A stretch of 64,000 nucleotides of DNA from a virus (taxonomy: Duplodnaviria; Heunggongvirae; Uroviricota; Caudoviricetes). The stretch lies in the IMG/VR virus record IMGVR_UViG_3300024303_000011. One strand, 5' to 3'. The translations under genes and the position numbers were made by a program. Every line of letters starts with the position of its first letter. Within the stretch, counting starts at the first letter, position 1. The notes beneath the pieces were generated by a model, which was not told the origin of the DNA, ran no database searches, and saw only the letters and a program-made list of their open reading frames with translations. Below are positions 6,472 through 40,800 of this stretch, one piece after another.

Positions 6472-6576
6472 ATGCCAATTAAAGGTGTTATATTACTGTT
6501 TGCCGCAGCAATGGTTATCGCATTTTTTTATCGCAAAGAAATTTATAATTGGATTGAAAAGAATTTTAAAAATTAA
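6472..6576 (+). CDS. small single-TM membrane peptide (34 aa)
   Basis: Hydrophobic core VILLFAAAMVIAFF; immediately upstream of SPFH gene. Confidence 0.3.
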   Translation: MPIKGVILLFAAAMVIAFFYRKEIYNWIEKNFKN

Positions 6577-6587
6577 GGAGATTTAAT

Positions 6588-7634: not shown

Positions 7635-7648
7635 TACAACCACTAATG

Positions 7649-7713: not shown

Positions 7714-7741
7714 TTGACAAAGCTAAGATTTTAAGTATAAT
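7714..7741 (+). promoter_or_regulatory. sigma70-like promoter P3 (TTGACA-N16-TATAAT) with upstream 20-mer (7681-7700) and downstream ACAAAATGATTG (7751-7762)
   Basis: Same cassette as P2 with identical 14-nt spacing from the 20-mer. Confidence 0.6.
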
Positions 7742-7755
7742 ATATACAGTACAAA

Positions 7756-10274: not shown

Positions 10275-10493
10275 CACTCATTGATATACTTTACTACATG
10301 GCTTATGCTACATTTGCCATAATTGGTATTGGCGTATTTATAGAATACTTAAAAAATATTTAAGGGAAATAATTAATTATGGAAACAATTATACTTGCTT
10401 ATATTGGACTTATGGGCGTTCTTGGTCTTGGCTTTATCCTTTTCGGTATTGTAGCAATCAAAGAATTGAATAAATGAAAGGAAATAATTGATT

Positions 10494-11717
10494 ATGATGA
10501 AACTGTCTCCCATTATTACCCATCTTACTGATACTGACCTGTATAAGTTCACTATGCTCCAGACCATGTTCCATCGTCATACTAATCTTAATGGCACTTA
10601 TATCTTCAAATGCCGCAATAATGACGTGAAGTTTACCGCAGAAATGGTGGAAGAAATCAATGCGCAGATTGACCACCTTTGCACTCTTCGTTTTACCGAT
10701 GAAGAACTTGACTATCTCGCGTCTCTGCGTTTCATCAAGCCTGACTTCGTTGAGTTCCTTCGCATCTGGCATCCTCTTCGTAGATATGTAGAAGCTTATA
10801 TGTCTGATTATGATGTTCATGGAACTAATCCAGAAGGAACACTCAATATCAAGGTAGAGGGCCCTCTCTTCAATACTATGATGTTTGAAATCTATCTCCT
10901 TGCTATTGTCAACGAAGTATATTTCCGTATGGAGTATAACTATCTTGACCTCGTTGATAGTGCGAGAAAGGAGCTTTACAGCAAACTTGTAGGATTTGTA
11001 CCTCCTGACCCTCTTTATACTTTCAACTTTGCGGAATTCGGCACCAGAAGACGCCTTAGCCGAGAGTGGCAGGATTATGTAATGACTGAGCTTCTCAAAA
11101 CCAAGCACTGTGTTGGCACTTCTAATGTCTATCTCGCTATGAAATATGGTATCAAGGCAATCGGCACCTACGCTCACGAATATGTTCAGATGTTCCAGGG
11201 CGTCCCCGGCATTCAGCTTGCATATACTAACAAGGCAGCTCTTGAAGAGTGGTTTGAAGAATACCAGGGTGACCTGGGAACCGCATTGACTGATACTCTT
11301 GGAACTGACCTGTTCCTGCGGGACTTCAACAAGCTTCAGGCGACTTGCTATACTGGTGTTCGCCATGACTCTGGTGACCCCTACGAGTGGGGCGAGAAGA
11401 TTATTGAACACTACCTAAAGCTTGGTATTGATCCTAAAACCAAGACCCTTCTGTTTAGCGATAGCCTTGATTTTGAAAAAGCTCAGGCGATCTACGATCA
11501 CTTTAATGGCCGCATTAATGTAAGCTTTGGTATTGGCACTTATCTCACTAACGATACTAATGTAGATCCTCTGAATATCGTCATTAAACTTCAGTATGTA
11601 AATGGTCATCCAGTAGCAAAACTGAGCGATGTTCCCGGTAAGACGATGTGTCAGGACGAGAACTATGCAGACTATTTGAAGCAGGCGGTTGATTATAGAC
11701 TGCGGGAAGGTATTTAA
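10494..11717 (+). CDS. pncB: nicotinate phosphoribosyltransferase
   Basis: N-terminal LTDTDLYKFTMLQ matches PncB LLDTDAYKLHMQQ; length ~408 aa. Track start 10488 is TTG; ATG 10494 preferred. Confidence 0.6.
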   Translation: MMKLSPIITHLTDTDLYKFTMLQTMFHRHTNLNGTYIFKCRNNDVKFTAEMVEEINAQIDHLCTLRFTDEELDYLASLRFIKPDFVEFLRIWHPLRRYVEAYMSDYDVHGTNPEGTLNIKVEGPLFNTMMFEIYLLAIVNEVYFRMEYNYLDLVDSARKELYSKLVGFVPPDPLYTFNFAEFGTRRRLSREWQDYVMTELLKTKHCVGTSNVYLAMKYGIKAIGTYAHEYVQMFQGVPGIQLAYTNKAALEEWFEEYQGDLGTALTDTLGTDLFLRDFNKLQATCYTGVRHDSGDPYEWGEKIIEHYLKLGIDPKTKTLLFSDSLDFEKAQAIYDHFNGRINVSFGIGTYLTNDTNVDPLNIVIKLQYVNGHPVAKLSDVPGKTMCQDENYADYLKQAVDYRLREGI

Positions 11718-12120: not shown

Positions 12121-12687
12121 ATGACAGGTGTAATTCTATTTCGCGCCCAGCCTTTTCATAACGGCCACCTAGCGCAGATTAAACGTGCTTATAAAGATAT
12201 GCGGAAACTTGGTGGCGATTTGTATGTTCTAGTCGGTAGCGCCGATAAATTTGGCACTAAACGCAACCCTATTCCAATTGATATACGGCTTGATTTAATT
12301 AAAAGTAGTCTCAATGAAGTACTCAATTCAGATCAATTGAAACATATTGAGATAGTCCCTCTTAATGACCTTAGCGATGAAGCCAATAATACACATTCTT
12401 GGGGCGAATATCTTTATAGCAAAATGTGTGAATATACTGGCGATACTGATTTTGTCTTCTATTACAGTGACAAACCCGAAATCGCATTGAGTTGGTTCGG
12501 TGACAATGAACGAGAGCATATTTATTTCAAATTTCTTCCAAGAGTAGATAATGTGAATGCTACCGAAGTAAGAGGACTCCTTTATACTTGTGTTCTTGGC
12601 GATGCTATGAAATTGGAGCTCCTGCTTCCTAATTATGTTTATGGCAAAATTACTACACTTCATGATTATATTGTAAATGCGAGGTAA
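12121..12687 (+). CDS. NMN/NaMN adenylyltransferase-like nucleotidyltransferase (HxGH family)
   Basis: AQPFHNGH (H/TxGH) and C-terminal NATEVRG (ISSTxxR-like) motifs; AAGGAG RBS. Confidence 0.55.
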   Translation: MTGVILFRAQPFHNGHLAQIKRAYKDMRKLGGDLYVLVGSADKFGTKRNPIPIDIRLDLIKSSLNEVLNSDQLKHIEIVPLNDLSDEANNTHSWGEYLYSKMCEYTGDTDFVFYYSDKPEIALSWFGDNEREHIYFKFLPRVDNVNATEVRGLLYTCVLGDAMKLELLLPNYVYGKITTLHDYIVNAR

Positions 12688-15758: not shown

Positions 15759-15782
15759 CAAAATCAATCGCATCATATAAAA
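15756..15782 (+). promoter_or_regulatory. promoter P4 (TTGACA-N15-TATAAA) with downstream ACAGAATGATTG (15790-15801)
   Basis: Hexamers plus conserved downstream motif. Confidence 0.45.
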
Positions 15783-15813
15783 TAAACACGACAGAATGAT
15801 TGGGAGTGATAAA

Positions 15814-19234: not shown

Positions 19235-19816
19235 ATGAATGATAAAGAGCATGTGTTGATGTGCATAATGGGAGAATCTTCTTGCGGGAAGGATACACTG
19301 GTAAATGAACTGTGCCGTCGAAATCATCTAAATCAAATCATCTCATATACTACACGACCACGAAGAATCAATGAGGGAGATACACACATTTTCGTTGACG
19401 AAGATACATATACGCAGATGAGAGAAGACAATGAGATTGCTGCCTATACATGCATTAACGGCAACCATTATTGGTCCACCATCGATCAGCTGTATAAGTG
19501 TGATTATTATATTATAGACCCTACAGGTGTCGAATCTCTTAAGGCGCTAAATCTTCCAAACTTACGACTCGTTACAGTATATATAAATGTACCAGAAGAC
19601 ACTCGTAGAGAGCGGGCAAAAATGCGTGGGGATGATATGGATGTATATCGCAGCCGTTGTCTATCAGAGCGTGAACAGTTCCGAAATATGAAAAAGAATA
19701 TGGACGTAGAATGGGTTATTTCAAATATTGATTTTGCAGAAGCTTATTCTATGCTAAAATGGCTCTCTGATGTAAAAGGAGTTTGGAAAAACTATACGGA
19801 GGACGCTACAGAATGA
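19235..19816 (+). CDS. guanylate-kinase-family nucleotide kinase
   Basis: P-loop GESSCGKDT, TTRPRR guanylate kinase-like motif; AAGGAGG RBS. Confidence 0.5.
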   Translation: MNDKEHVLMCIMGESSCGKDTLVNELCRRNHLNQIISYTTRPRRINEGDTHIFVDEDTYTQMREDNEIAAYTCINGNHYWSTIDQLYKCDYYIIDPTGVESLKALNLPNLRLVTVYINVPEDTRRERAKMRGDDMDVYRSRCLSEREQFRNMKKNMDVEWVISNIDFAEAYSMLKWLSDVKGVWKNYTEDATE

Positions 19817-20382
19817 TTATCTGTGTTGACATTGATAACTGCCTAAACAACCTCGGCGAAAAAATGTTGGAAATTTATAATTCACGCTTTAATAAGAAAC
19901 TTCAAATGTCAGATTTGACGTCTTATAATTTTGCGGAATGCATGCCTAAATGTGATGCCGATGCACTCTGTTCGCTTTTTAAGGAGAAGGATCTTTGGGA
20001 CTCTCTTAAACCGCTTCCGGGAGCACGCGAAACACTTAAGAGACTGTCGCAGAAAGGACACCGCATTTATCTAGCAACGGCAACAGATCCAATCAACTTT
20101 GAATGGAAATGCTCATGGGTATCCACATTCTATCCGTTTATTCCAACCGATCATATTATCCGTATTATGGATAAAAGCATGCTGAGAGTGGATGTAATGA
20201 TAGATGACCATTTAGATAATCTGATTGGCAATATCTGTGAACGTATTTGCTTGGATTATCCATACAACAGAAGCATTACAAAAGATTTTTCTTATGATAT
20301 CAATCGAGCTTACAATTGGAGCGAAATTGAAAAATTTATTGAAGATATAGAAAGGAAGAATCAAGAATGGGAGAGAGGGTAA
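19813..20382 (+). CDS. HAD-superfamily 5'(3')-deoxyribonucleotidase-like
   Basis: DxDxT-type motif VDIDNCL at N-terminus after GGAGGA RBS. Confidence 0.45.
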   Translation: MIICVDIDNCLNNLGEKMLEIYNSRFNKKLQMSDLTSYNFAECMPKCDADALCSLFKEKDLWDSLKPLPGARETLKRLSQKGHRIYLATATDPINFEWKCSWVSTFYPFIPTDHIIRIMDKSMLRVDVMIDDHLDNLIGNICERICLDYPYNRSITKDFSYDINRAYNWSEIEKFIEDIERKNQEWERG

Positions 20383-20576: not shown

Positions 20577-22517
20577 ATGGATATTGAACTTAAATTTAAC
20601 AAAGATTTTGAAAGAGCGCTGTATAATTTAAGAGAAAAATATGGAGAAGATTTTGAAATCCTTAACGGCATACATAGTTCTCAAATGAACTTTTCTGATT
20701 TTATTGATGCTTTTGTCGATAAAAATGTGGCAGATGTCACAATAGACTCAAACGCAAATGCCTCTAATAAAGACATTGCATCGTTCAGAACTGAAAAAGG
20801 TAAATCAATCGATAAAGTCATTGCAGCCAATAAAATCTTTTACGAAATTAAAAAGAAGTATGGTTTGAAAACAGCAAAGGAATGGCTTGAAACGGAATAT
20901 ACTGGCGGTTTTTATCTGCACGACTTCCCGTCTACGACATATGTACCTTATTGTTATGCATATGATCTTAGCAGATTGGCAACTGAAGGACTTTTCTTCT
21001 TGAATAATTATAATTCACGTCCTCCTAAGCACTTGACCACATTTATCGATGATGTAATTGAATTCATCAGTTTCATGTCTAATAGATCTTCTGGGGCAGT
21101 TGGAATTCCAAATATTCTTGTATGGACATATTATTTCTGGAAAAAAGATTGTGAAAGCGGATTTATTATCAACAATCCTGATTATTATGTTAGACAGTCG
21201 TTCCAAAAACTCATCTATAGACTGAATCAGCCATTTATGCGAATCGATCAGTCCGCATTCGTAAATGTTTCAATCTTTGACAAAGAATATTATGAAGCTC
21301 TGTTTGGCGGACTCGAATTCCCAGATGGAACATTTGCAATTGACTATGTAGACGAATTTATCGAACATCAAAAAATCTTCATGGAAGTTGTATCTGAGAT
21401 TAGACAAGAAAACATGTTCACATTTCCCGTTTTGACATATTCTCTTCTTTATAAAGATGGAAAGTTCGTAGACGAAGAATTTGCGAGATGGTGTTCTGAT
21501 CATAACTGTAAATGGAATGACTCAAACTTCTTTGTAAGCGGTGATGTAACAACGCTCAGTAACTGTTGTAGACTTCTTTCCGATACGTCTAAGCTTAAAG
21601 GATTCATTAACTCTATTGGTGGAACAGCGCTCAGCATTGGTTCTGTTAAGGTTAATACAATCAACCTCGTGCATATCTTCTATGAACTTGGAGATGAGGT
21701 ATCTGAAAAGAAATATTTGAATCTACTCAAGAAACGAACTGTTTTATGTTGTAAGGTTCTTGATAGAGTTAGACATATTATTCAGAGAAATATTGAAAAG
21801 AAACTACTTCCTAATTATTGTGACGGCGGCATAGAAATGGATAAACAGTATTGTACAGTTGGAATTCTCGGCCTCTACGAAACAATGGAGAAGTTTGGAT
21901 ATATCGATACAGATGAATTTGGCAACAAGTTCTATACCGAAGATGGCATGGATTTTGCAAGCAAGATCTTTGATGTGCTCAATGAAACAAAAGATGGATT
22001 TACTGATGAATATTCCTTCAACATTGAAAGTGTCCCGGCTGAACAGGCGGCAGTAAAACTTTGTGCTAAAGACAATATTCTATTTGATGTTCATGATAAC
22101 TTTATCTATAGTAATCAGTGGATTCCGCTTACAGCAAAGTGTACTATCAACGAAAAGATTAGAACCAGCGCAATTCTCGATAATAAGTGTTCAGGTGGCG
22201 CAATAGCCCACATTAACATCGATAATAATTTCCCAAATACTGAGATGGCATGGGAGATGCTTAATTACATTGCTAGCCAGGGCGTCATTTATTTCTGCTA
22301 TAACACAAAAATCAATGTTTGCAAAAACCATCACGGTTTTGTAGATAGCGATATTTGTCCTGAGTGTGGAGAGCATGCATGCGATACATATCAAAGAGTT
22401 GTTGGATTCCTAACTCCTTCTAAGTCTTATAGCAAAGAAAGATTTAAGGAATTTTCTGCAAGAGAATGGTATGATACCGCCGCTATGTATGGCGAAACAT
22501 CTCTGATTGGTGATTAA
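20577..22517 (+). CDS. nrdD: anaerobic ribonucleoside-triphosphate reductase
   Basis: C-terminal Zn site CPECG..C and glycyl-radical motif RVVGFLTP; 646 aa. Confidence 0.7.
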   Translation: MDIELKFNKDFERALYNLREKYGEDFEILNGIHSSQMNFSDFIDAFVDKNVADVTIDSNANASNKDIASFRTEKGKSIDKVIAANKIFYEIKKKYGLKTAKEWLETEYTGGFYLHDFPSTTYVPYCYAYDLSRLATEGLFFLNNYNSRPPKHLTTFIDDVIEFISFMSNRSSGAVGIPNILVWTYYFWKKDCESGFIINNPDYYVRQSFQKLIYRLNQPFMRIDQSAFVNVSIFDKEYYEALFGGLEFPDGTFAIDYVDEFIEHQKIFMEVVSEIRQENMFTFPVLTYSLLYKDGKFVDEEFARWCSDHNCKWNDSNFFVSGDVTTLSNCCRLLSDTSKLKGFINSIGGTALSIGSVKVNTINLVHIFYELGDEVSEKKYLNLLKKRTVLCCKVLDRVRHIIQRNIEKKLLPNYCDGGIEMDKQYCTVGILGLYETMEKFGYIDTDEFGNKFYTEDGMDFASKIFDVLNETKDGFTDEYSFNIESVPAEQAAVKLCAKDNILFDVHDNFIYSNQWIPLTAKCTINEKIRTSAILDNKCSGGAIAHINIDNNFPNTEMAWEMLNYIASQGVIYFCYNTKINVCKNHHGFVDSDICPECGEHACDTYQRVVGFLTPSKSYSKERFKEFSAREWYDTAAMYGETSLIGD

Positions 22518-23000: not shown

Positions 23001-23212
23001 TGGTTAAATATAAAATTGTTCTTGGTGACGACAAAGCGCTTGTCGCAGAGGTAAATAGACAACTGCAAGAGACGCGAGGATATTGCCCATGCGCTCTTGA
23101 ATGGAATGAATCAACAAAATGTGTTTGCTCTGCATTCAGAGAATCGCTGGCAAAAGGCGAAGAGACTGAATGTAATTGTGGCAAATACAAGATTATCAAA
23201 GTAGAAGATTAA
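23000..23212 (+). CDS. Cys-rich hypothetical protein
   Basis: ORF. Confidence 0.3.
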   Translation: MVKYKIVLGDDKALVAEVNRQLQETRGYCPCALEWNESTKCVCSAFRESLAKGEETECNCGKYKIIKVED

Positions 23213-23243
23213 CAACACAAAATGATTGAAAGGAAGATGAATT

Positions 23244-23525: not shown

Positions 23526-23975
23526 ATGGCAAGATTTTTTGAAGTTGTAAAAGACGAGTATAGAAAGAACAAGGGGGAGATTAAGCTCCCTACGCGAGCA
23601 ACAAAATATTCCTCTGGATATGATTTTTATAGTCCGGTAAATGTAATTATTCCACCAAAAGAAATGGTAATGATTTGGACTGATGTGCGTGCACACATGT
23701 ATTATGACAACGCTCTACTTATTATGCCTAGATCTAGTATGGGAAAACAGCCCGTTATGATTGCTAATACAATTGGAAATATAGATTCTGATTACTGGGA
23801 TAATGAGTCTACTGGTGGCAATATCGGCTTCAGACTTCTAAATCTCGGCGACACTTCTTATGAGATTAAAGAAGGCGATAGAATAGGGCAGGGTATCTTT
23901 ATTAAGTACGGCACTGTTAAAGACGACAACGTAACTGCAACTAGAACCGGAGGTTTTGGCTCTACTAATGGATAA
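23526..23975 (+). CDS. dut: dUTP diphosphatase
   Basis: Motifs PRSS, IDSDYWD, RTGGFGSTNG. Confidence 0.7.
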   Translation: MARFFEVVKDEYRKNKGEIKLPTRATKYSSGYDFYSPVNVIIPPKEMVMIWTDVRAHMYYDNALLIMPRSSMGKQPVMIANTIGNIDSDYWDNESTGGNIGFRLLNLGDTSYEIKEGDRIGQGIFIKYGTVKDDNVTATRTGGFGSTNG

Positions 23976-24549
23976 GCAATCGTACTATCGAACTATAACA
24001 ATTTTGGGATCTATTATTATCCTACAGATTGTTTTTATTGCAGCACTATTAATGAATCCATCGGTTGAAACTCAGATAGTAGAGGTGCCAAAAGAAGTTG
24101 TCGTCGAAAAAGAGATTGTAAAAGAAGTTCCAGTAGAAGCAATCAAAGAAGTCATTGTAGAAGTAGAGCCGACATATGTGTACAATATAACCGCTGAAGA
24201 GCGTGAAATGCTCGCAAGAATAGTACATCAGGAGGCTAATATTGAAAGCCTTGATTGTCAAAAAGCTGTTGCGTCTGTGGTTATTAATAGGTGGCAAAAT
24301 GGTTATTGGGGAGAAACATTGAAAGATGTAATTTATGCGAAAAATCAATTTTCTCCAGCATATCTAATACCAAAGACAACACCTACAAATAAAAATTATG
24401 AAGCCGTAGATTATGTGCTCCAAAATGGATGTACGATGCCTGAGTATGTAATGTATTTTAGGGCATATTATCATTTTAATTGGAATGGCTATGTGCCATA
24501 TATCAAAATAAACAACACATGTTTTGGTTATTTACAAAAAGACAAATAA
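23956..24549 (+). CDS. membrane-anchored cell-wall hydrolase (SleB/Hydrolase_2-like), probable endolysin
   Basis: N-terminal TM; RIVHQEAN...VASVVINRWQNGYWG. Confidence 0.55.
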   Translation: MALLMDKQSYYRTITILGSIIILQIVFIAALLMNPSVETQIVEVPKEVVVEKEIVKEVPVEAIKEVIVEVEPTYVYNITAEEREMLARIVHQEANIESLDCQKAVASVVINRWQNGYWGETLKDVIYAKNQFSPAYLIPKTTPTNKNYEAVDYVLQNGCTMPEYVMYFRAYYHFNWNGYVPYIKINNTCFGYLQKDK

Positions 24550-24557
24550 CAATTTCA

Positions 24558-24590
24558 TAGCGGCGGTAGAAATATCGTCGCTATTTTTTT
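24558..24590 (+). terminator. rho-independent terminator
   Basis: TAGCGGCG-loop-CGTCGCTA followed by TTTTTTT. Confidence 0.65.
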
Positions 24591-24831
24591 ATAGGTGATT
24601 ATATGGAAAAAAGGACAATTTATATACATAAAAACAAAGACGAAGATATACAAAAATATACAAACAATGATTATAGAGTTGTTACATTTATCGGTGGCAA
24701 TAACGATATAGTTGAAATAATAAAAAAATTGATTCAATATAAAATTAATTCATAATTTTTTATTTACATAATTTCATATCCTATGTTATAATACATTCAA
24801 GGTACATATAAATAACATAGGAGGTACATCA

Positions 24832-26772
24832 ATGTTAGAAGAAAGAGTTGCATATGTAAGATTAAGCGACGACGATAATTGCAACTTTGAGTCTATGTCT
24901 ATAGCTAATCAGAGAAAAATTATATTGCAATACGCCAACGAACATGGCTACACAATCACTGAATTTTACGTTGATGACGGCATAAGCGGATACTTGTGGA
25001 GCAGACCAGCATTCAATAGATTAAAACAAGATATTGATGATGGTTTAGTTAAAGGTATCATTGTCAAAGATCTATCAAGATTGGGAAGGCATAATGCAAG
25101 AGTACAATTATTCAACGAAGACCTAATCCAAAAACGCGTTGAACTAATCAGTATAGGAGATAATTACAACAATCTCACAGACGATGACTCGATGCTTGGT
25201 ATTACAACGTGGGCAAATGAAAAACTTGTTAAAGACACTAGTAAAAAGGTTCGCGCTGTAATTCACTCAAAACAAAAAGAAGGCAAGTGGATTAGCAGTA
25301 ATGTTCCTTACGGATACAGAAGAATATACGGCAAAAAACATACATTCGAGATTGATCCTATAACAAGCGTATATGTTAAAAAAATATTTGATCTTTATGT
25401 GAATGGATATGGAAGCATGAATATTGCTAAAATGTTAAACGACGAAAAAATTCCAACTCCAACGCAGGCACTAGAAAGAATTAGAGAAGAAAATGGTTTG
25501 GAGCCAAGCAAAAGGACTGCCGCCACATTATGGTCTGCAACACACGTCAAGAGAATAATTGCTAATGAATTCTACGTTGGAACGTTGATACAAAGAAAAA
25601 TGCAAGTAATAGGAATTCACGGCAAAAACATTAAAAGAGATAAAAGCGAAAATATTATATTCCCAGATCACCATGAAGCACTTATAGACAAAGAGACATT
25701 TTATCTCGCTCAGAAGGTTAAAGCGGAAAGGGCTACCAAACATCATAAGGGTGTAAGAAAGCATGTAAATATATTTACCGGATTGATATTCTGCGGTGAC
25801 TGTGGAAGGCCATTAACACCAAGAAGTGGAGTTAATAAAAGAAGATATTATGTTTGTTCTACCTATAATTCTTATGGCGCAAATTATTGCAATCATAACA
25901 GAGTATATGAAGATGAATTGACGGAATTTGTTAAAGTATATCTGAGACAGTGCAGACATAGTTTGAAGGGAGCAATCGAAAACTTAGATAATATCATTCA
26001 AAAGGAATTAAAACAAGTATGCGACGTTAATGCTATTAATTCAATAGAAGCTCTACAAAAAGAATTATCAAAGACAACAAATGAACTAAAAATCCTCATG
26101 GAGCAAAAGGTCAAAGATATTATAAAAAATCCTGCAATGAAGGATATACTTGAAGAAACTTACCAGCAAGCAATAAATGATAAATCAAGCTATATACAAT
26201 CCTTAAAAACTCAAATTAATGAACAACAAAGCGTTTCTCAATCGAGCAAGGAAGTAAGGAGTGGATTAAACAAGGCACTACTATTATTTGATGAAATCAT
26301 TACGAGTGATGCGCTAACTGTTAAACAATTAAAGTTACTTGTAGAAAGAATTGTTGTGAATTATAATGGCGGCATAGATATTTTTATGAACGGCAATCTA
26401 AATGAAGTTATGAGCGGACACATAGACATAAGCCTTGGATCAATAGACATATATAAGAAAGCAATTATTGATACTATGTTTGAGTTAAAAGAATTTCACT
26501 TCGGAGATTTGCACAAGCGTGTTGCAAGCAAAGGATATAAAGAAGGATATTACAGTGTATTCATGCCAATCGTCAATAAACTTGAAAGCGCTGGCATTAT
26601 AGTACGCACGCCAAGAGCGCGAGATAAGAATTATGTAGTTGGTACTAAAGACGATGCGTATATGTTATTTAATTTATACACTGAAGGGTACATACAGGGA
26701 TATAGATGTATCTTCAATGTAACATTTACGGGACTATTAAAGATTTGCAAATGGGTGAAACGTATAAGATAA
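24832..26772 (+). CDS. large serine recombinase (integrase)
   Basis: Resolvase catalytic N-terminus YVRLSDDD...DLSRLGR, recombinase and Zn-ribbon (CGDCG...C) domains, C-terminal coiled coil; 646 aa. Confidence 0.7.
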   Translation: MLEERVAYVRLSDDDNCNFESMSIANQRKIILQYANEHGYTITEFYVDDGISGYLWSRPAFNRLKQDIDDGLVKGIIVKDLSRLGRHNARVQLFNEDLIQKRVELISIGDNYNNLTDDDSMLGITTWANEKLVKDTSKKVRAVIHSKQKEGKWISSNVPYGYRRIYGKKHTFEIDPITSVYVKKIFDLYVNGYGSMNIAKMLNDEKIPTPTQALERIREENGLEPSKRTAATLWSATHVKRIIANEFYVGTLIQRKMQVIGIHGKNIKRDKSENIIFPDHHEALIDKETFYLAQKVKAERATKHHKGVRKHVNIFTGLIFCGDCGRPLTPRSGVNKRRYYVCSTYNSYGANYCNHNRVYEDELTEFVKVYLRQCRHSLKGAIENLDNIIQKELKQVCDVNAINSIEALQKELSKTTNELKILMEQKVKDIIKNPAMKDILEETYQQAINDKSSYIQSLKTQINEQQSVSQSSKEVRSGLNKALLLFDEIITSDALTVKQLKLLVERIVVNYNGGIDIFMNGNLNEVMSGHIDISLGSIDIYKKAIIDTMFELKEFHFGDLHKRVASKGYKEGYYSVFMPIVNKLESAGIIVRTPRARDKNYVVGTKDDAYMLFNLYTEGYIQGYRCIFNVTFTGLLKICKWVKRIR

Positions 26773-26793
26773 TAAATATAAGGAGATGATATT

Positions 26794-26994
26794 ATGATAA
26801 CCAATCCAAGAAAAATCGCATGCTATTCAAGAGAGAAAGCAAAAATATATCAGCAAATTCTTGACGCTATGGAAAATGACAAATTATATCAAGACGATCC
26901 GATATGGCAAAGAGCAGCTGAAATCGGCAGAGAAAGACATATACAACCGACCGAAGCATTTAAGCTTGCAGAACAAGAATTTCAAAACAAATAA
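26794..26994 (+). CDS. hypothetical small protein
   Basis: AAGGAGA RBS. Confidence 0.3.
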   Translation: MITNPRKIACYSREKAKIYQQILDAMENDKLYQDDPIWQRAAEIGRERHIQPTEAFKLAEQEFQNK

Positions 26995-27183
26995 AAAATA
27001 GGAGCCACCGTTATGGTGACTCCTAAAAATTTGGAAGCAAATATGATAATAAAATTGTATCTATATTATTACCATGTAATTCAAATCTATTCTCCCCTAT
27101 CGCACACAAATAATTCATGCTATCGTTCGTATAAATATTGCCATCATTTTTATCTTATGATAGTATTAAAATAGAGGTGGTTA

Positions 27184-27339
27184 TATGGAAAAAGAACGGA
27201 AAGTAATGACTCTAAGAGTAGATCCTCAGCTTAAATTTGAGATAGAAAAATGTGCAATAGCAGAAGGATACTCGACAGTTAACTCCTGGATCATCGACAT
27301 TATAAAGGGATATATTGAGAATAAAAACGTAAAAAAATA
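27184..27339 (+). CDS. ribbon-helix-helix (CopG-like) small protein, 51 aa
   Basis: MTLRVDPQLKFEIEKCA N-terminal beta-strand pattern; not in ORF track. Confidence 0.3.
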
Positions 27340-27342
27340 AGG

Positions 27343-27370
27343 AGAACAGATCATTGTCTGTACTCCTTAA
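27343..27370. terminator. bidirectional hairpin terminator between convergent genes
   Basis: GGAG-ACAGA...TCTGT-CTCC hairpin with T-rich flank on minus strand. Confidence 0.4.
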
Positions 27371-27375
27371 ATTCT

Positions 27376-27765
27376 TTAACCAATTTTTTTCTGGCTCTTT
27401 ACGGTTGCCTCAATTAGTGTGTCTAGATATACGTCTATGTTACCATATACTTTAGATATGATATCTTTTGCTTCTTCTGTTAATAACTGCATTGCAGTCT
27501 CCTTACTTCTCTTAAATGCCTCCGTTGCGGCCTCTTTTGTAAACTCACCGTTCTTCTTAAGCTCGTCTACATATGTCTGGGTTGTAGCAGCCACAACATC
27601 ACACACCATAGAAACAACCTGTTCTAATACTGCCTTTATGTGCTCATTTTTAACCGAATCTTTATTTCCAGTCCATTTCTCATAAAGAAACTTGCAAAGA
27701 TACGTTGTTAATACGGGAACTGCCGCAGTAAGCAATATGTATAATAAATCTTGAACTAATTCCAT
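27376..27765 (-). CDS. putative holin
   Basis: N-terminal TM helix, charged C-terminus, at start of lysis/tail block. Confidence 0.35.
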   Translation of the reverse strand: MELVQDLLYILLTAAVPVLTTYLCKFLYEKWTGNKDSVKNEHIKAVLEQVVSMVCDVVAATTQTYVDELKKNGEFTKEAATEAFKRSKETAMQLLTEEAKDIISKVYGNIDVYLDTLIEATVKSQKKIG

Positions 27766-32647: not shown

Positions 32648-35600
32648 TTATGTTGTTTCAATATCGACTTCACAGTGAATTGTTGCGTTATTTTTTATAT
32701 CGTCATGTGTTATTGTTATCTCCTTTTTCCCAATATGTTCGGTATTTTCATTCCAAGCGTTGTCTGCGTTAGAATCTCCTGATGAACGAATCCATTCAAA
32801 TTTAGATTCAGGTATTTCACCTGTTTTATCCGTTCCTTGGTAATATACTCTACAGGTTAGGGTAGTTTTTTGATTTTTATCAGTAAATATAGTTGGTCCA
32901 CTTGATGTAATAACGGTTGACCATCCTGTGGCTTGTTGAAAATCATTGGCTGTGGCAAAAGCACTCTTACCGTCAGATCCTTTGATTTCAACGGATCCAT
33001 CTTTTCCAACTTTAAATGTTCCGCCCTTGCCGCCTATCTCTAGTGATCCACCTTTGATTTCAGAACCCTCAATGTAGCCACCGACAACCGCATCGGCTAA
33101 TAAACCATACATTGTTTCTTGTTTGCCATTTCCTAAGTCAATATTAAACTCTCCAAATACTCCTTTGGCCGTATTCCAGTTGTCATTCGTAAACACTAAT
33201 TTATTGTTGGTTAAAAGAAACTGTTCATTTTCATACGTATCATCCGATCCATCTTTTAATTTTCTTCCAAGTATTCCCTTTTCGTTCCATGTAATTGATT
33301 GCCCGGTAGACGAAGACACAGATAATGCTGCATCTTTTAATCCTTCGGATATTGCTTTATCGAGCGCAGTTGCTTTATCTGCTCCCTTTTGCCACTTACT
33401 TGAACTTGATGCAACGGTTTTACCGGCTTGTACTGCCTGTTGCAACAAATCTGCAGTTTTAGAAATCTCATCTTTCGTTGTAACAAGATCTCCAAATTGA
33501 CAAGAGAAGTCAGATAAGTCTTCGAAGTTTATACTCACTTCAAGTAACCTGGCTCTTTTTACGTATCCATCTCTAATTTTAACACGAACAAAATTGCCAA
33601 GCCTGAATTGTCCTTTTAATGGAGCAAATTCTGGTATTGCCATTATGTTCGCCATAGTGATGCCAAATGATAGCTTTGGTTGAGATATTTTTTTTAGTTC
33701 CTTCTTAGCCTCTTCTAACAGATCTCTTTTAATAGACATCTGTTCTTCTTCTGATTCATATCCTGTTAATATAAAGTTCGAGTCATTATACTCGTCTTCT
33801 CTCATAAATGGAGAAAGCCTAATCAATTCTCCCTCTGTGAAATAATCTTCCATAGAAGACAGCTCAGACAGGCGGTTCATTTGTGCCAGGCATACACCCT
33901 GTGATCTACTGTATGCAATATATGGAGTTCCTCCAGTAACATACACAGCATATTCGTTCTTGTCATTAAAACTCTCTGGCAACATAAATTTTAATATACC
34001 GAATTTGCCACTATATCCGGTTACAGTGAATGTATCAATATTGAAGTAAGTAGATACCGCGCGAGTCAAACCAAGGAAATTTGCGCCATCTTGTTTATCT
34101 TCATATGTAAATTTACCGTCAAGGTCATCTGGCAAAATGTTTCGCATACTCTCAACTTCATAACCATTTTTTAAGTATGTAGCAAGCCGTTGTTTTTCTG
34201 CGAGCACTTCTTGAACTATCTGCAATTTATTATAGTTTTCAATAAAACGTGTATAATTTTCAAAATCGGCTGAGTTGTTAATGAAATTACCGTTGCCATC
34301 TTCATTAACACTATATTCTTCCCATGTCATCTTCCCGTTGCTATCTACCTTTGTACAAATCAATATACGCGCATTTTTACTGCTCGTATCAAGCCATTTG
34401 TCACCAACACTGCCACCTATGGGTTCTTTATCGCTTGCAACACATCGGAATCCTTCTTTAGACATATATCCTTCTGTTTGGGTAATAAATATCTTAGTAT
34501 AGATACCTTGTTTTTCTTGTAATAACCTAATACCATAGGCTGCAACATTATCTTTGACCGTCTCATCTTTAGCGATACATAAATACGCGCCGAGGGTTCC
34601 AATAGATTTAACTTTAAAATCAAATATCTCTGCTCCTGTTTCTGCATAGCTAGACAATCCTAATTCATCTGATGTTAATTCTCCTCTAACCCATTGCCTT
34701 AATGTATATTCATCCGTATGTGATAATCCAGAACTTGCAATGGTTTTTGTGCAGTAAATCTTATAATCAGAATTTTTATAATAAGTAGTATCTTTACCGT
34801 CGATAACTATTGTTGGAGCTTTAATACATTTTACACGAATGGTTACGGAGTCATTGGCGTTATTTTCAAGAGTTAACAAGATATCGTCTGTTTTATCTAT
34901 TTTAGAAATTGTTCCATTATCATCAACACCAACACGATAGAGGCCTAGTTTTTCTTTAAGAGTATTTAGTAATTCCTCTTCACTTAAGCCTGGACTTAAA
35001 TAATATTTTTCTTGCAGCTCGTGAATTCGTTCAGCTGCCTTTTCAGCCTCTTCGATTGCATTTTCTCCCTCAAACATAAAACCAATTTGTAACTTCTCAT
35101 AGTCTTCTATTTCACCATAAATAATTCCACCAGCATAACCTTCAAGTTCATCTGGTGACATAACGTCTCCATTTGGTAAAATAGGGGTAACATTTATAGC
35201 AATTGTTTCATCTTCATTTGAATATGTATGTGTGTACACTGTAGATGTTCCGTCACCAGCATCTGTCCATCCAACGTCAACTAATTTAGAAGACGGTATT
35301 TGTGGACGATTAAATAAATCAACATTGCCGCCCAGTTGAAGCCCTTCCATTTCTTGTATTTCACTATGTGTTAAGGAACTATATGTATTGTTATATGTAC
35401 AATATAGCTTATCAAAAGGATCGCCAATCAATAAGACACGCGGTTCAACAGGAACATGGTTCATCAACTCATTATGCTCATTATATGCCGTAGACCATTG
35501 AGACATGAGATCAGTATACATGTCAGTATATCCATTAACCTCGTCCATGTACTTATTGTACTTAATAGCTAAATCACGGCCTAGCCACGTAGGATCGTTG

Positions 35601-36634
35601 TAAAATGACAAGTTAGTTATATAATTCTGTCCAAGGTTTACGTCTCTGATATCTACACCCTCTCCGCCTGTAACCTTCAGTTTTGTACGAATGTCATCTG
35701 TCGAATAAGACACATCAATAGACGACGCAAGGTTTTCGCGAGAAATAAATACATCAGTATCCCACAATGTCTGCACATTATTATCTGCCGTTATGCCATC
35801 CTCTTCGGTTATATAAAAATTAACTTCTCCATTTATGGAGTCCCATTCCATAGCATATTTGAATGTTTCTGCTGCAGCGTTATATAAGAAGTCATATACA
35901 GCAACGCGTTCTTCGCTGAATGTACGCTCTTGATACCAAAGCTCTTTATCAACATGTCCAATCTTCCACTCTGGTATATGACTGAAAATAATATGCAATA
36001 AACTTAAATCCGGATTGCTTGGCCAATAAAACCTAATATTTGGGTATGCCTTAATATATAAACCTTCATCATATGAAGCAAAAGAATCTGGGTCAACAAT
36101 CTGTACTTCAGTGTACACATACGCCTTATTGCTTGTATATTCTTTTATATAATACCTTTCATATGGATCAAACGCAGTCGGAGCATTTTTATATGGTCTA
36201 TCGATAGAATAACCAACCCCATACTGTTGCATATGGTATATATATTCTAAAGAATCATCTTCACCGGTATTTATTCTAAAATTATCAAGATATTTTGTTG
36301 CGGTCGCATACTCAAGAGAAAATGCAGTAATGGTTTTCGTATCTGATTCTGCTAAATTCTCTTTTACGTCTTGAATAACAAAATGGCCAATACCACGAAT
36401 ATAAATAACTCTTAAAGAATCAAGTAGCAAATAATATGGATTTAGACGCATTTTGCCATCAAGAATATCTATATATGTTTTACTAATTGTAAAAGTTGTT
36501 TCTGAGTAAGTGTTGAATTTAAAAACAGCAGAAAAATCATATGGTTGCAATTCGCCAATAATTGTTTTATCAGGCTGACATAAAAATACTTGCGGTGGAG
36601 TATAATTATCAAATAAATTAGAAGGTAAATTCAT
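32648..36634 (-). CDS. tail tip protein (Tal / prophage tail endopeptidase-like), 1328 aa
   Basis: Follows Dit in canonical siphovirus order. Confidence 0.5.
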   Translation of the reverse strand: MNLPSNLFDNYTPPQVFLCQPDKTIIGELQPYDFSAVFKFNTYSETTFTISKTYIDILDGKMRLNPYYLLLDSLRVIYIRGIGHFVIQDVKENLAESDTKTITAFSLEYATATKYLDNFRINTGEDDSLEYIYHMQQYGVGYSIDRPYKNAPTAFDPYERYYIKEYTSNKAYVYTEVQIVDPDSFASYDEGLYIKAYPNIRFYWPSNPDLSLLHIIFSHIPEWKIGHVDKELWYQERTFSEERVAVYDFLYNAAAETFKYAMEWDSINGEVNFYITEEDGITADNNVQTLWDTDVFISRENLASSIDVSYSTDDIRTKLKVTGGEGVDIRDVNLGQNYITNLSFYNDPTWLGRDLAIKYNKYMDEVNGYTDMYTDLMSQWSTAYNEHNELMNHVPVEPRVLLIGDPFDKLYCTYNNTYSSLTHSEIQEMEGLQLGGNVDLFNRPQIPSSKLVDVGWTDAGDGTSTVYTHTYSNEDETIAINVTPILPNGDVMSPDELEGYAGGIIYGEIEDYEKLQIGFMFEGENAIEEAEKAAERIHELQEKYYLSPGLSEEELLNTLKEKLGLYRVGVDDNGTISKIDKTDDILLTLENNANDSVTIRVKCIKAPTIVIDGKDTTYYKNSDYKIYCTKTIASSGLSHTDEYTLRQWVRGELTSDELGLSSYAETGAEIFDFKVKSIGTLGAYLCIAKDETVKDNVAAYGIRLLQEKQGIYTKIFITQTEGYMSKEGFRCVASDKEPIGGSVGDKWLDTSSKNARILICTKVDSNGKMTWEEYSVNEDGNGNFINNSADFENYTRFIENYNKLQIVQEVLAEKQRLATYLKNGYEVESMRNILPDDLDGKFTYEDKQDGANFLGLTRAVSTYFNIDTFTVTGYSGKFGILKFMLPESFNDKNEYAVYVTGGTPYIAYSRSQGVCLAQMNRLSELSSMEDYFTEGELIRLSPFMREDEYNDSNFILTGYESEEEQMSIKRDLLEEAKKELKKISQPKLSFGITMANIMAIPEFAPLKGQFRLGNFVRVKIRDGYVKRARLLEVSINFEDLSDFSCQFGDLVTTKDEISKTADLLQQAVQAGKTVASSSSKWQKGADKATALDKAISEGLKDAALSVSSSTGQSITWNEKGILGRKLKDGSDDTYENEQFLLTNNKLVFTNDNWNTAKGVFGEFNIDLGNGKQETMYGLLADAVVGGYIEGSEIKGGSLEIGGKGGTFKVGKDGSVEIKGSDGKSAFATANDFQQATGWSTVITSSGPTIFTDKNQKTTLTCRVYYQGTDKTGEIPESKFEWIRSSGDSNADNAWNENTEHIGKKEITITHDDIKNNATIHCEVDIETT

Positions 36635-37810: not shown

Positions 37811-40800
37811 TTATGTGCTTCCTACTCTTTTCAAATTATAATTCAATTTTCTTGTAAAGTTTTCTAGTTGTTCTGTTATAATCTTCTTTACTTCGGGGAT
37901 GACTTCTTTGCTACAATTATCAATATGCAACAAGCTATCAAATGTTAAATTCGTTTCTGGTTTATTAATCACATTGCTCATCAAGTTGACACCATGAACA
38001 GCGGTAGAAGTGCTATCCATATTAGGATTAAGTTTTCCCCACTCAATCAAGTTTTCAGTGATATCCGCTGGAACAACAGTAGATCCAGCCCTCATATAGG
38101 ACAAAGTACCCTGTGGAGTTGCATACATAACAAGCTCGTCACCGATTTCGTCGGTGATAGCCCAGTCGTCTTTTTTGGTACCGAGGGTACCTTTGGCATA
38201 AAAGGTAACATTCTGATCCCACATTTTTCTATAGACCTTTTCTAAGTGTTCATCTCTGTATCCCTTAGATTTATAATATCTATATGCCTGGGATATAACA
38301 TCTTCTTTGGCATTAGATTTTGCCTGACTCTCTGTACCATACCCCATAGCCGTAAATGTTCCTAACGCCGTTTTCAGCGATGCGGTTACAGTTTTCCATC
38401 CACCACCAGGATTATATCCTCCGCCATCACTGTCCTTACCATTGCCAATATAATTCGGAGTAGTTATGGTAAGTTCTTTTTCAATCTCTGCTCCTATATT
38501 TCTTGCCTTTGTTAGAGCATCATTTAGCTTTTGCTCAACGTGTAAATACCAATTAGTTATAGCGCTTTGAGCGTTATCCCACGGGCTCTTAAGGATGCCC
38601 TCTAAGGTACCATATTGACCTTCTTGTTTGCTCTTTGCGTCTGCTACAGCTTTTTCCAACAACTCTTTTACCTTATCAGAAAATGTAATCACAGATCCAT
38701 TCTCTTTTGTAGGATTTTTCCACGGCTGATCTATATATTTCTGCAGCTCAGGAGATTCGGTAGTCAAGAAATTCTTAATCAAACCAACATATGATTCTAC
38801 GTCGGTCTTAAATTTCCATGCCGCACCAGAGCCAGCACCAAAAGCACTAGACAACAAACCAGGAGCATTTTGTCCGAACAGGGTAATTACGCCACTTTCG
38901 TTAATCAAACTAAGCACACCATCATGCACAGTGTTCTTAAATATAACAGATTCGGTCGATGCATTTATCCATGGATTAATAAGGTTTTCGTTTATGGTAA
39001 AGCCTTTTTCTGTGGACAGGTTTACCAACGTATCAAGAACAACGTCAGCATTCGCCATAACGTTCTGATATGTTTGCTCAACAACCAAATCCGTTTCCTT
39101 AATAGATTCTCTAAGGTTTTCAAGATAATCCATTTTACTCTTTTCAAAAGACTCCATCTCATCGTCAAGAGCCTTTGCCTGAGAATCCATCGCGTGATTA
39201 TAATAAGTATCATCTAACCCTTCTCTGGCGTCTCGCAATTCCGCTTCGAGCTTGATTCTCTCTGCTATTGTTGCAGCGTCCGTACTACCAGACATAGAAG
39301 CAATTCGTCTTTCAAGGGTGCTAATGTCCTTTGTCTGCTTCTGGATATCTTTTCTGAAGTTATAAAGATCTCTTTCGGCGTCAAGTTCTTCTTTCTTCAA
39401 ATCAATTAATTCTTGATATGCCTCGATTTCTTTATTCATACCCTCTTCTATCATATCGATGCGAGCTTCATTCAAATCAATAATTGCATCTTCTGCCGCC
39501 TCGTATGCTTTGATTGCAGACCATTGTGCATCCTTAATTGCCTGTGTATTCTCGTAGTATTTGTCCTGAGAAATTTCTCCCGCATCAAGCAGTCTCTTCT
39601 GTTCCTCTAATTGTTCATTACATTCTTCTATTACCTGCTTTTGCATTTCCATCTCTTGGAATGCTAATCCTGCACGAGAGATACCTTCTGCTGTCCAGGA
39701 GCCATCTTCATATGCGACATCATCATCGGACATTAAATCTGAGATATTATTTAACTCATTGATAGAATCATCAATTCTGCCGATAAGCTGTTCGAATTTC
39801 TCAAATCTACTATCAAGAATCTTCTGTTCCCATTCAAGAACCTTGGTTTGTCCCTCATAAGTTTCGGTTTCAAGCTGAGCTACTTCAAGTAGTTTTGCAT
39901 GATATTGCTCATCGTCTTCTCCTACTTCCCTCTTGAGTCGTTCTAACTCTTCATATTCCCAATTAAGCTGATTTTGATTATCTGCATTGCGAGCACGTTG
40001 TCTTGCAATCATTTCATCATATGCACTTTCTGGGACGTCAATATTGAGCGTCTCAAGTCTGCTGATGTAAGATTCGATATAACCAAGCTGGTTATCAATA
40101 AAGGAACCCTTATTGTCAAATGCCTCTCTTACCTTATCCCAGCCTTCAAGATAAAGATTCTTTAGGTCTTCGTTGAATTGAGCCAAAGCTTTGTCGTTTT
40201 CAAGAATATCCAGTTCAGTTTGATGCATATCTGCTTGCATTTTAATAGCAGCTGCATTTCTATCTTCTTCATATTGTTTTGCCTTTTCAGAGCCCTCTTC
40301 AAACGGATTTGCAGAATTCATAAATTGATCATACAGTTCTTGTTGCGCAGCTAATTTATCAACATTGTTCTGTCTGTCTTCTTGTTCTTTTGCAATAAGA
40401 TCATCATACATATCAGGATGAGCCAGTTCTCCCTGTATGTCGAACAGATCCATATATCCCTCAAGGTATGACTTTGCATCGTCTATAAGTTGGCCTTTAT
40501 CGTCGAACTTTTCTCCAATATTCTCAAAAGCAGTATTATATAGTTCAATGATAGACTTGCGGAACTCAATCATTCGAAGAGTAGATTCTTGGATGGCATG
40601 CTCTACTTCCCAAAGAGCGGCAGCAACTTCGTCGGTCATATCCAACTTTTTCAATGCTTCTCGCTCTTGTTCGTATAGATCAATTTTGTCTTGTTCTAGT
40701 TTTATCTGCTTCTCATAATATGACTTTGAGACACCCTCTTCTTCTGCTTCAAGCTTTTCTATTTCGTTTTCAATGTATGTTTGCTGATTATCAAGGTTTT

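Follow-up and report, generated by a model that had tools for sequence, protein, structure and literature searches.

A conserved recombinase slot holding a probable serine-integrase module in an uncultured 170.6-kb phage

Introduction

The large serine integrases of phages, including phiC31 Int, Bxb1 gp35, TP901-1 Int and SPbeta SprA, have a common architecture of Resolvase, Recombinase and zinc-ribbon domains. Enzymes of this class pair attP with attB, and the directionality factor of SprA is SprB. In the lysogeny modules of temperate phages, such as the SPbeta-like ones, serine and tyrosine integrases swap non-orthologously at one position. Related enzymes, TnpX and TndX, belong to the elements Tn4451 and Tn5397, while the known DNA invertases, at about 190 aa, are of the small serine kind. 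Another point of comparison is Clostridium botulinum phage c-st (186 kb, with a TubZ/TubR/tubS partition system), which counts among the proven plasmid prophages and is credited with TubZ and TubR (PMC8026635). The recombinase listed for c-st in the same source is a Xer-type tyrosine enzyme and no large serine one, and small serine or tyrosine enzymes are given there as the resolvases of plasmid prophages (PMC8026635).

The region described here covers positions 24550 to 27370 of the window, by which is meant the whole 64,000-nucleotide stretch of DNA that was analysed. The phage genome is a closed circle of 170,610 bp (three assemblies), a size comparable to that of c-st; unlike c-st, the window itself has neither TubZ nor TubR. 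An earlier note on this DNA had read the region as an AT-rich recombinase island between lysin and holin genes, and as either the integration module of the phage or a secondarily acquired mobile element. Like the phage serine integrases, its recombinase keeps the Ser nucleophile and the four zinc-ribbon Cys, adjoins a small partner gene and lies at a module boundary. Unlike them, it bears an extra predicted winged-helix-like domain at its C-terminus, and its 170.6-kb phage has been seen only unintegrated, with no attP/attB pair or lysogen found. With TnpX it has in common the motif RLSxDD...ES.SI.NQ, but the transposon ends, mobilisation or accessory genes and multiple insertion contexts of Tn4451 and Tn5397 are missing here. 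The feature is of an ordinary kind and its annotation as a serine-integrase module is routine; modest value comes from the size of the probably temperate phage, from the slot and from the enzyme clade, all described below.

Genome setting and gene content

The region forms the junction between a plus-strand block of nucleotide-metabolism and early genes and a convergent minus-strand block of lysis and tail (late) genes. The last gene of the first block (23956 to 24549, plus strand) encodes a membrane-anchored, SleB-like cell-wall hydrolase (Hydrolase_2, Pfam PF07486, 8.8e-15; PHROG endolysin, 2.1e-11), a homologue of which stands 5' of the recombinase in L008, L010, L011, L013 and L097. The right flank, and first gene of the convergent block, is a holin gene on the minus strand (27376 to 27765; PHROG 13712, 6.7e-26). 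Together with the large serine recombinase, the region contains three small ORFs, o50 (24603 to 24755), o66 (26794 to 26994) and a ribbon-helix-helix (RHH) gene (27185 to 27340), and not two as had been counted. The large serine recombinase, RHH-like gene, SleB-like hydrolase and holin named in the earlier note were all confirmed by Pfam or PHROG matches. The note also pictured the island as wedged between what look like two parts of one lysis cassette, which misleads: hydrolase, recombinase, RHH gene and opposite-strand holin are the conserved order of the clade, and judging from this synteny the region does not appear to be a recent insertion that disrupts a lysis cassette.

The 64-kb window has no recognisable repressor gene, which counts against an integration module. 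Searched at the nucleotide level against cultured phages, the region gave no match, and neither did a structural protein of the window against cultured-phage proteins.

Transcription signals and non-coding sequence

The module appears to be a separate transcription unit, with its own strong sigma-70-type promoter and insulating conserved terminators. An intrinsic terminator with a 12-bp stem and a T-run (24557 to 24584, plus strand) is where the exchangeable cassette discussed below begins on its left side. Conservation of this terminator extends to 10 relatives, among which 3 of its 12 pairs show compensatory changes, and it corresponds to the strong terminator that had been noted at 24558 to 24590. 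The putative recombinase promoter (24763 to 24792, plus strand) consists of TTTACA, an 18-nt spacer and a TG-extended TATAAT, giving 11 of 12 consensus matches. Across 12 relatives with an overall identity of about 80%, the -35 box, the extended -10 box and ACATTYAAGGTACAT just behind it vary little or not at all.

At the right end of the region, a hairpin with 20-nt arms that are 80% complementary (27331 to 27376) is predicted to act as a bidirectional terminator common to the RHH gene on the plus strand and the holin gene on the minus strand. Hairpin terminators had been noted at both ends and were confirmed there; another lies inside, at 26999 to 27025, with an 11-bp stem and a T-run on the minus strand. 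This third hairpin would stop leftward transcription into the recombinase gene, and its stem is kept with compensatory changes in relatives. Its position in relatives is taken by the 3' end of a minus-strand tubZ gene.

The stretch from 27043 to 27184 (plus strand) is non-coding, since its ORF "o53" is not conserved, and includes the RHH promoter (27138 to 27166) and the conserved blocks GGTATTTATATTAT and CTCCCCTATCG. Such blocks are common to L013, L008 and L017, which have unrelated recombinases, and are missing in L094, which has the same allele as the window. This distribution places the stretch on the RHH or backbone side, apparently not as part of the recombinase allele.

A conserved slot with exchangeable recombinases

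Relatives were anchored on nrdD and required to extend at least 6 kb downstream, which gave 53 loci for comparison. The position corresponding to the recombinase held a serine recombinase in 25 loci and a tyrosine integrase in 16, and none was seen in 12, so that 41 of the 53 had a recombinase there. In nrdD-anchored relatives, the plus-strand block nearly always ends with a recombinase gene before it meets the convergent late genes. Pfam matches, among them one to the Tn916-type Int DNA-binding domain, confirmed what these enzymes are. The small genes 5' of the tyrosine integrases (L014, L019 and the L045 group) encode HTH_17 or Tn916-Xis excisionases, so that the slot holds true integrase-excisionase pairs in related phages. 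It is occupied either by a serine recombinase, with five or more unrelated lineages represented, or by a tyrosine integrase together with its excisionase. As far as these alignments go, they show the convergence point to be a conserved recombinase slot in a family of phages of about 150 to 175 kb.

Identity to the window in nrdD and in the recombinase was compared across relatives, and backbone and recombinase proved incongruent. It was 95-96% for nrdD with 22-42% for the recombinase in L008 to L012, 95% with 63% in L097, and 91-92% with 88-93% in L003, L091 and L096. In L002 a recombinase of 93% identity sits on a backbone without any nrdD match. Homology of the cassette DNA to relatives with the same allele starts at 24545 to 24557 and ends at 26783 to 27075, while homology to relatives with a different allele (L013, L015 and L084) stops at 24591. 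The presence of one allele on divergent backbones, and of other recombinases in the same slot, points to cassette exchange and not to transposition. From these alignments the allele appears to have been exchanged repeatedly, with one joint at the conserved terminator 5' of the cassette and the other within sequences of the RHH side.

As in mosaic module exchange, the break points lie at conserved linker sequences. Scale and setting are different here: at least five serine lineages as well as tyrosine integrases occur within a single clade of uncultured phages of about 170 kb, and some of the cassettes include TubZ/TubR as well. A slot in which these serine lineages, tyrosine integrase-excisionase pairs and TubZ/TubR interchange is a natural experiment on integration specificity and lifestyle switching.

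The large serine recombinase

The recombinase gene (24832 to 26772, plus strand) encodes a protein of 646 aa with a predicted catalytic Ser12 in the motif YVRLSDDD. Pfam matches cover the Resolvase domain (PF00239, 4.4e-23, aa 6-153), the Recombinase domain (PF07508, 6.6e-24, aa 178-300) and the zinc ribbon (Zn_ribbon_recom, PF13408, 2.9e-17, aa 314-371), and the whole is assigned to PHROG 95 "integrase" at 1e-98. Among solved structures, the best match for the catalytic domain is the N-terminal domain of TnpX (3e-18), accompanied by SPbeta SprA (5.6e-18, over aa 50-511) and the TP901-1 catalytic domain (6e-8). Ser12 in YVRLS, the Arg-bearing motif DLSRLGR and the four zinc-ribbon Cys are nearly invariant in 46 homologues, and no enzyme of a cultured phage is more than 33% identical to the protein. 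A catalytic domain with its Ser and Arg is followed by a Recombinase domain and then by a four-Cys zinc ribbon, and this predicted architecture is that of phage serine integrases. In large serine recombinases a coiled-coil motif, inserted in the zinc-ribbon domain, governs directionality; here the part from about aa 385 to 500 looks helical and heptad-rich by eye, and the protein was aligned to SprA up to aa 511.

Beyond this point the recombinase has an extra domain (about aa 537-614, encoded at 26440 to 26673, plus strand) that is winged-helix-like in its predicted structure. An AlphaFold2 model of the C-terminal 142 aa, based on a 46-sequence alignment, reached pLDDT 80-93 across it. The top Foldseek matches were all winged-helix DNA binders (SSV1 F-93, IscR, MarR, PadR and AspA), with probabilities of 0.85-1.0 and weak E-values (0.02-0.1). 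Such a domain may give the enzyme an added DNA contact. The phage and its relatives add a clade of serine recombinases of about 650 aa with a predicted extra winged-helix domain. In L042 and L057 the recombinases carry DUF4368, which is absent from the enzyme of the window and is a C-terminal Pfam domain of TnpX-type recombinases.

Small genes of the region

The 50-aa gene o50 (24603 to 24755, plus strand) is found with this recombinase lineage in every relative that has sequence there. It behaves as a coding gene, with codon-position differences of 859/499/1254 (a third-position excess) and indels in frame. No match was obtained in Pfam or PHROG, and no meaningful one in PDB chains, the SprA-SprB fusion included. 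The same position holds the excisionase gene in relatives with a tyrosine integrase, and from position only o50 is a candidate directionality factor or regulator. As it always travels with this recombinase allele, it would be the best candidate for such a partner.

The fast-evolving o66 (66 aa, 26794 to 26994, plus strand) occurs in only some carriers of the allele: homologues of 33-41% identity were found in L001, L002, L004, L096 and L098, and it is absent in L003, L092 and L094. It gave no family match in Pfam or PHROG and no meaningful one in PDB, where the SprA-SprB fusion was included. The third gene (27185 to 27340, plus strand) encodes a 51-aa Arc-like RHH protein (PHROG 582, Arc-like repressor, 6.7e-6). 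Its homologues (42-54% identity) stand 3' of differing recombinase alleles, and precomputed Pfam annotation gives the L010-type homologue a weak match to RHH_5. By this comparison the RHH gene is apparently a conserved backbone gene of the convergence point.

Candidate attP and search for integrated copies

An attP had been proposed in the AT-rich stretch from 24600 to 24830. Most of that proposal was wrong, as 24603 to 24755 is the coding gene o50, and what stays as a candidate is 24756 to 24831. These 76 nt are the only conserved non-coding stretch that is specific to this recombinase lineage; attP would most probably lie within them, alongside the recombinase promoter. They contain an inverted repeat whose 11-nt arms match perfectly across a 22-nt spacer (44 bp, 24779 to 24822) and which overlaps both the -10 box and the ribosome-binding site. 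This repeat is an unproven candidate for the attP core or for an operator; an attP would be about 40-50 bp long and imperfectly symmetrical around its central dinucleotide. The centre of the repeat is highly conserved, and L004 keeps the symmetry by a compensatory change; it does not stand as a proven site, since the changes in L003, L094, L095 and L096 are uncompensated. A second candidate, downstream at 27043 to 27075, was rejected: that block is common to phages with unrelated recombinases and missing from L094, which has the same allele. As to the 76-nt stretch, a point against an attP there is that crossover would part the recombinase gene from its promoter. The att sites of this clade, if found, could serve genome engineering.

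No attB, junction or integrated copy was seen in about 20 related loci from viral, metagenome and genome contigs. The loci related to this allele (7 viral, 7 metagenome and 1 genome contigs) all had unbroken phage context, and so did the 24 contigs read in each of the exact-protein look-ups with the recombinase, o50 and the RHH protein. A recombinase scan of species-representative genomes gave one match, to a contig of phage origin that had been binned with a Kiritimatiellae MAG. Among the 120 homologue clusters listed no contig was longer than 172.6 kb, and the tyrosine-integrase relatives, followed as a route to lysogens, had none above 154 kb. Pile-ups of contig ends, used as att markers, were informative for the L085-type lineage only, whose variable right flanks contain HTH and unknown genes and no recognisable host genes. 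An exact-pattern scan for the L006/L007 break point matched L006 alone.

Integration module and alternative readings

On balance, the region is probably the phage's own site-specific recombination module, with a likely function in integration; the catalytic residues of the recombinase are intact. Of what the earlier note had offered, this is the best-supported reading, owing to the domain architecture and the peers of the enzyme in the slot, although integrated copies and attB were not found in contigs. The recombinase would act as a serine integrase, a dimer on the phage attP pairing with a dimer on the bacterial attB, and the paired dimers would exchange strands at the central dinucleotide. 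The phage would then probably be temperate, which is uncommon at a genome size of 170.6 kb.

A possible but rather unlikely alternative is that the prophage is an extrachromosomal plasmid, in which the recombinase would resolve multimers or recombine with another replicon and would not integrate into the chromosome. On this view the recombinase and the RHH gene, with an optional TubZ/TubR pair between them, would form a maintenance island. In L008, L010, L012 and L017 (nrdD 91-96%), TubZ and a TubR-like gene of 83-96 aa indeed lie between the recombinase and the RHH gene. The L008 protein matches Pfam Tubulin (6.4e-12) and TubZ_C_3 (1.1e-8), and the best cultured match of the relatives' TubZ is that of the plasmid prophage c-st (29% over 85% of the query, 5e-18), with the same tubR-tubZ order. 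TubZ homologues are also present on many contigs of 135-174 kb, and TubZ of the L010 type on contigs of 204 kb and 342 kb; among the 120 clusters listed, none had the 170.7-kb length of the window's own contig. A genome that closes as a circle, with integrated copies seen nowhere in the data searched, suits a plasmid prophage as well. The TubZ/TubR pair of the closest backbones points to maintenance outside the chromosome in this clade and keeps an extrachromosomal lifestyle in play. Both genes are, however, absent from the 64-kb window and from every carrier of this allele. Moreover, pairing of attP with attB is what large serine recombinases do, and they are not known to resolve identical sites. 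The enzymes listed as resolvases of plasmid prophages are of the small serine or tyrosine kinds (PMC8026635), which speaks against such a role here. The same can be said of the Tn916-type Int and Xis that fill the slot in other relatives.

A wider form of this idea, which we regard as doubtful, is that the family of about 170-kb uncultured rumen and gut phages has a single exchangeable "lifestyle island" where its two transcription blocks meet, whose recombinase with its winged-helix domain would serve an extrachromosomal prophage through multimer resolution or replicon fusion. Large serine recombinases have no established role of this sort. The cassettes of such an island would combine differing recombinases with or without TubZ/TubR.

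An autonomous transposon with a serine recombinase, similar to Tn4451 and its TnpX, that entered secondarily between the lysin and holin genes is an improbable reading of the region. The catalytic domain is nearest to TnpX among solved structures, the region is lower in GC than the window, and the same cassette is found on differing backbones. The flanks, however, have no terminal inverted or direct repeats of at least 20 nt, no accessory transposon genes are present, and the composition of the recombinase gene is within the range of the window. The cassette is always in the same slot behind the same upstream terminator; no other context, and no copy within bacterial DNA, was found. The slot is filled in 41 of 53 loci, and an empty hydrolase-RHH junction was not seen among them. 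From the earlier suggestion of a secondarily acquired mobile element, what stands is the exchange of the allele between backbones; the terminal repeats, second context and empty site are lacking.

It is very improbable that the recombinase works as a DNA invertase or regulatory switch with its target site in the genome of the phage: JGI names homologues "DNA invertase Pin-like", PHROG 125 "DNA invertase" matches at 4e-27 and tail-fibre genes are nearby, but that match is confined to the N-terminal and Recombinase parts common to both families and is far surpassed by the integrase PHROG, no inverted-repeat pair brackets a segment in the window, and the known invertases are much smaller proteins.

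Composition and codon usage

The region had been described as markedly AT-rich, which holds for the stretch as a whole and not for the recombinase gene itself. The GC of 24550 to 27370 is 0.326 versus 0.380 for the window (1.1 percentile of 2821-nt windows), making it the lowest-GC stretch of about 2.8 kb. This is mostly owed to the 280 nt 5' of the recombinase, 24586 to 24865 being the AT-richest 280 nt of the window (GC 0.218). The recombinase gene, at 0.341, is within 1 sd of the genes of at least 100 aa in the window (mean 0.376, sd 0.036), and its neighbours are close to it (hydrolase 0.342, nrdG 0.323 and nrdD 0.355). The low GC may reflect an AT-rich regulatory region and the history of the cassette, not a newly landed foreign element.

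The claimed change of codon usage is weakly supported, and neither in GC nor in codon usage is the recombinase gene an outlier. The recombinase gene has a Karlin B of 0.320 (z 6.8), somewhat above genes of the same size (nrdD 4.8; tail genes 2.2-4.4), but several other genes of the window exceed it, with z of 8.7 and 10.4.

Gene organization and composition of the island

The window is a portion of a large phage genome. Its plus-strand block carries a tRNA array, NAD-salvage and RNA-repair genes, a ligase, nrdD (20577-22517), nrdG, a dUTPase (23526-23975) and a membrane-anchored Hydrolase_2 protein (23956-24549), while the leftward genes from 27376 encode a holin, two small membrane/coiled-coil proteins, tail proteins and several giant ORFs. 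The island occupies the gap between these blocks. It begins with a hairpin terminator (24557-24584), followed by the 50-aa gene o50 (24603-24755), a near-consensus promoter, TTTACA-18-TATAAT (24763-24792), a large serine recombinase of 646 aa (24832-26772), the 66-aa gene o66 (26794-26994), a second hairpin (26999-27025), about 150 nt of non-coding DNA and an Arc-like ribbon-helix-helix (RHH) gene (27185-27340). A bidirectional hairpin common to RHH and the holin gene forms its right end. The gene content and terminators reported in an earlier note on this DNA are real, and the left terminator is kept in ten relatives, where three of its 12 pairs show compensatory changes.

The island had also been described as AT-rich with a changed codon usage. 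The GC content of the 2.8-kb stretch is indeed lower than that of the window (0.326 versus 0.380; 1.1 percentile), and the AT-richest 280 nt of the window lie around 24586-24865. The difference is nevertheless modest, and the recombinase gene (GC 0.341) is within the gene range, less than one standard deviation from the gene mean and similar to its neighbours. Its codon bias is slightly above that of same-size genes but below that of several other window genes.

A conserved slot with exchangeable content

Eighty related loci (L-numbers) were fetched using nrdD as anchor, and the window's proteins were then located in each. In the closest clade (89-96% nrdD identity), a recombinase is the final plus-strand gene ahead of the convergent block. 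This clade has no fewer than five large serine recombinases that are distant from one another and 22-42% identical to that of the window, as well as a tyrosine integrase (L014); in L016, the sole recombinase-like match is weak and lies on the minus strand, past an expanded plus-strand block. In the clade with 75% nrdD identity, tyrosine integrases of the Tn916 type or other serine recombinases fill the slot. Counting all loci that extend at least 6 kb downstream, the slot holds a serine recombinase in 25 and a tyrosine integrase in 16, with none detected in 12. The tyrosine integrases are directly preceded by a small gene for an excisionase of the HTH_17 or Tn916 type.

The window's recombinase allele (79-93% identity; 63% in L097) is also found on far more divergent or reordered backbones. 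DNA homology of the cassette starts at 24545-24557, within the terminator, and stops either just past the recombinase stop codon (26783-26797) or at 27069-27075; in relatives with different alleles, homology is retained up to 24591. No repeats flank the stretch. The RHH gene and its promoter, like the conserved blocks at 27043-27130, also occur beside unrelated recombinases and so are parts of the backbone. Judged from these comparisons, the island is a conserved slot with exchangeable content. A recent insertion into a lysis cassette does not fit, since the order hydrolase, recombinase, RHH, holin is itself a conserved feature. The window's module is a further example of an already known kind; what could repay work is the wider pattern, one slot that swaps recombinase types, together with a partition system, in phages of about 170 kb.

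Other variation was seen among the relatives. A different serine-recombinase lineage of the clade with 74% nrdD identity (L056, L061, L068, L029, L030 and L067, around position 17429) remains 98% identical until 25 nt beyond the recombinase stop codon. From there on the right flanks, of at least five unrelated kinds, hold cI-like HTH genes and function-unassigned genes. The L031 and L063 contigs end exactly at this divergence point, which may be a crossover site or a junction of cassettes. Chimeras (P0143, P0147) occur among the relatives of the L045-type tyrosine integrase, with a PDDEXK_1 or PemK domain in place of the N-terminal quarter, and in many genomes of this group a second, convergent tyrosine recombinase lies 0.8-2.2 kb downstream (L041, L046-L049, L051, L054, L055). 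In L003 and L005, nrdD is interrupted by about 1.25 kb (6383-7638), after which homology to the window's nrdD resumes, suggesting an intron, intein or homing-endonuclease insertion.

The recombinase and its candidate attP

The recombinase carries Resolvase, Recombinase and zinc-ribbon domains and matches a phage integrase PHROG at 1e-98. The Ser nucleophile, Arg motif and four Cys residues are kept, and are nearly invariant among 46 homologues. Among solved structures, the TnpX catalytic domain and SPbeta SprA are nearest to it. The last 142 residues were modelled with a confident core (pLDDT 80-93), and all Foldseek matches of this model were winged-helix DNA binders, with weak E-values. Its architecture, the PHROG match and the equivalence of its slot with integrase-excisionase pairs argue for a serine integrase, which we consider the most likely reading, with moderate confidence. 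This reading also draws on what is established for the family: large serine recombinases are not known to act on identical sites.

The attP site had tentatively been placed in the AT-rich stretch 24600-24830. Most of this stretch is instead the o50 gene, whose coding signature is clear in a comparison of eleven relatives. As a candidate for attP, 24756-24831 is the strongest. No other non-coding stretch is conserved together with this allele. Twelve relatives share its centre, TATAATACATTYAAGGTACAT, without change, and the candidate includes a 44-bp element whose 11-nt arms are perfect in the window but change without compensation in several relatives. Because this element overlaps both the promoter and the ribosome-binding site, its role may simply be regulatory.

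Circular genome and possible extrachromosomal maintenance

An identical recombinase was found on contigs of 170,733, 170,737 and 170,751 nt from three assemblies. One of them has an exact 123-nt terminal overlap corresponding to window positions 26883-27005, and the three sizes equal 170,610 plus 123, 127 and 141; therefore, they represent one circular or circularly permuted genome. The contigs behind L088, L089, L090, L107 and L110 are this same 170,610-bp circle from three independent assemblies. Look-ups with the recombinase, o50 and RHH proteins gave an unbroken o50-recombinase-RHH order in all 24 contigs read per protein.

Integrated copies were totally absent from the data searched, which favours the main rival to a serine integrase, namely an extrachromosomal lifestyle with the recombinase serving maintenance. 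The nearest backbones point the same way: in L008 (12004-13273), L010 (10754-12064), L012 (16475-17746) and L017 (15779-17060), a minus-strand pair between the serine recombinase and RHH encodes a TubZ-like tubulin and a TubR-like winged-helix protein of 83-96 aa. The L008 TubZ matches the Pfam families Tubulin (6.4e-12) and TubZ_C_3 (1.1e-8). The best cultured match of the relatives' TubZ is that of Clostridium phage c-st, a proven plasmid prophage (PMC8026635) with the same tubR-tubZ order, and many contigs of 135-174 kb carry TubZ homologues. The pair is absent from the window and from all carriers of its allele. We regard an extrachromosomal lifestyle with such a role for the recombinase as possible but rather unlikely. 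An autonomous transposon is poorly supported and improbable, and an invertase, also poorly supported, even more so.

Contigs of 204,383 nt and 341,764 nt also carry the L010-type TubZ (cluster P0241); the longer one is about twice 170.9 kb, and both could be concatemer assemblies or host junctions. Two contigs of 110,013 and 61,925 nt from different samples (L006:1-4 and L007:10428-10431) share an endpoint at window 25261-25262, inside the recombinase gene at codon 143/144, and abut with the 4-nt overlap TTAT. A polymorphic insertion, a site of recombination or an artefact of assembly could each account for this break.

Other features of the window

Nine tRNA genes (Lys, Ser, Leu, Gly, Arg, Met, Ser, Gln and Trp) are arrayed at 4026-6325, with an HNH endonuclease ORF (4664-5122) among them. 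Auxiliary metabolism ORFs at 76-978, 7756-8805, 9193-9741, 10488-11717 and 12121-12687 encode AAA_33/HD kinase-like, RlaP RNA-repair nucleotidyltransferase, isochorismatase-family, nicotinate phosphoribosyltransferase and cytidylyltransferase-like products, which together suggest NAD salvage and RNA repair. The minus-strand late block contains very large ORFs of 2314, 3295, 1401 and 1328 aa (37811-44755, 45955-55842, 58595-62800 and 32648-36634), and the adjoining 361-aa DUF6558 protein had no match among cultured phages. A recurrent motif, TATAAT...ACA(G/A)AATGATTG(A/G)AAGG, lies upstream of many window genes (1159-1195, 3515-3542, 7733-7767, 15773-15811, 19792-19828 and 23199-23237 on the plus strand; 45878-45898 on the minus strand) and probably serves as a promoter or leader specific to the phage. 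Neither the recombinase promoter nor the RHH promoter has this motif, and both look host-type.
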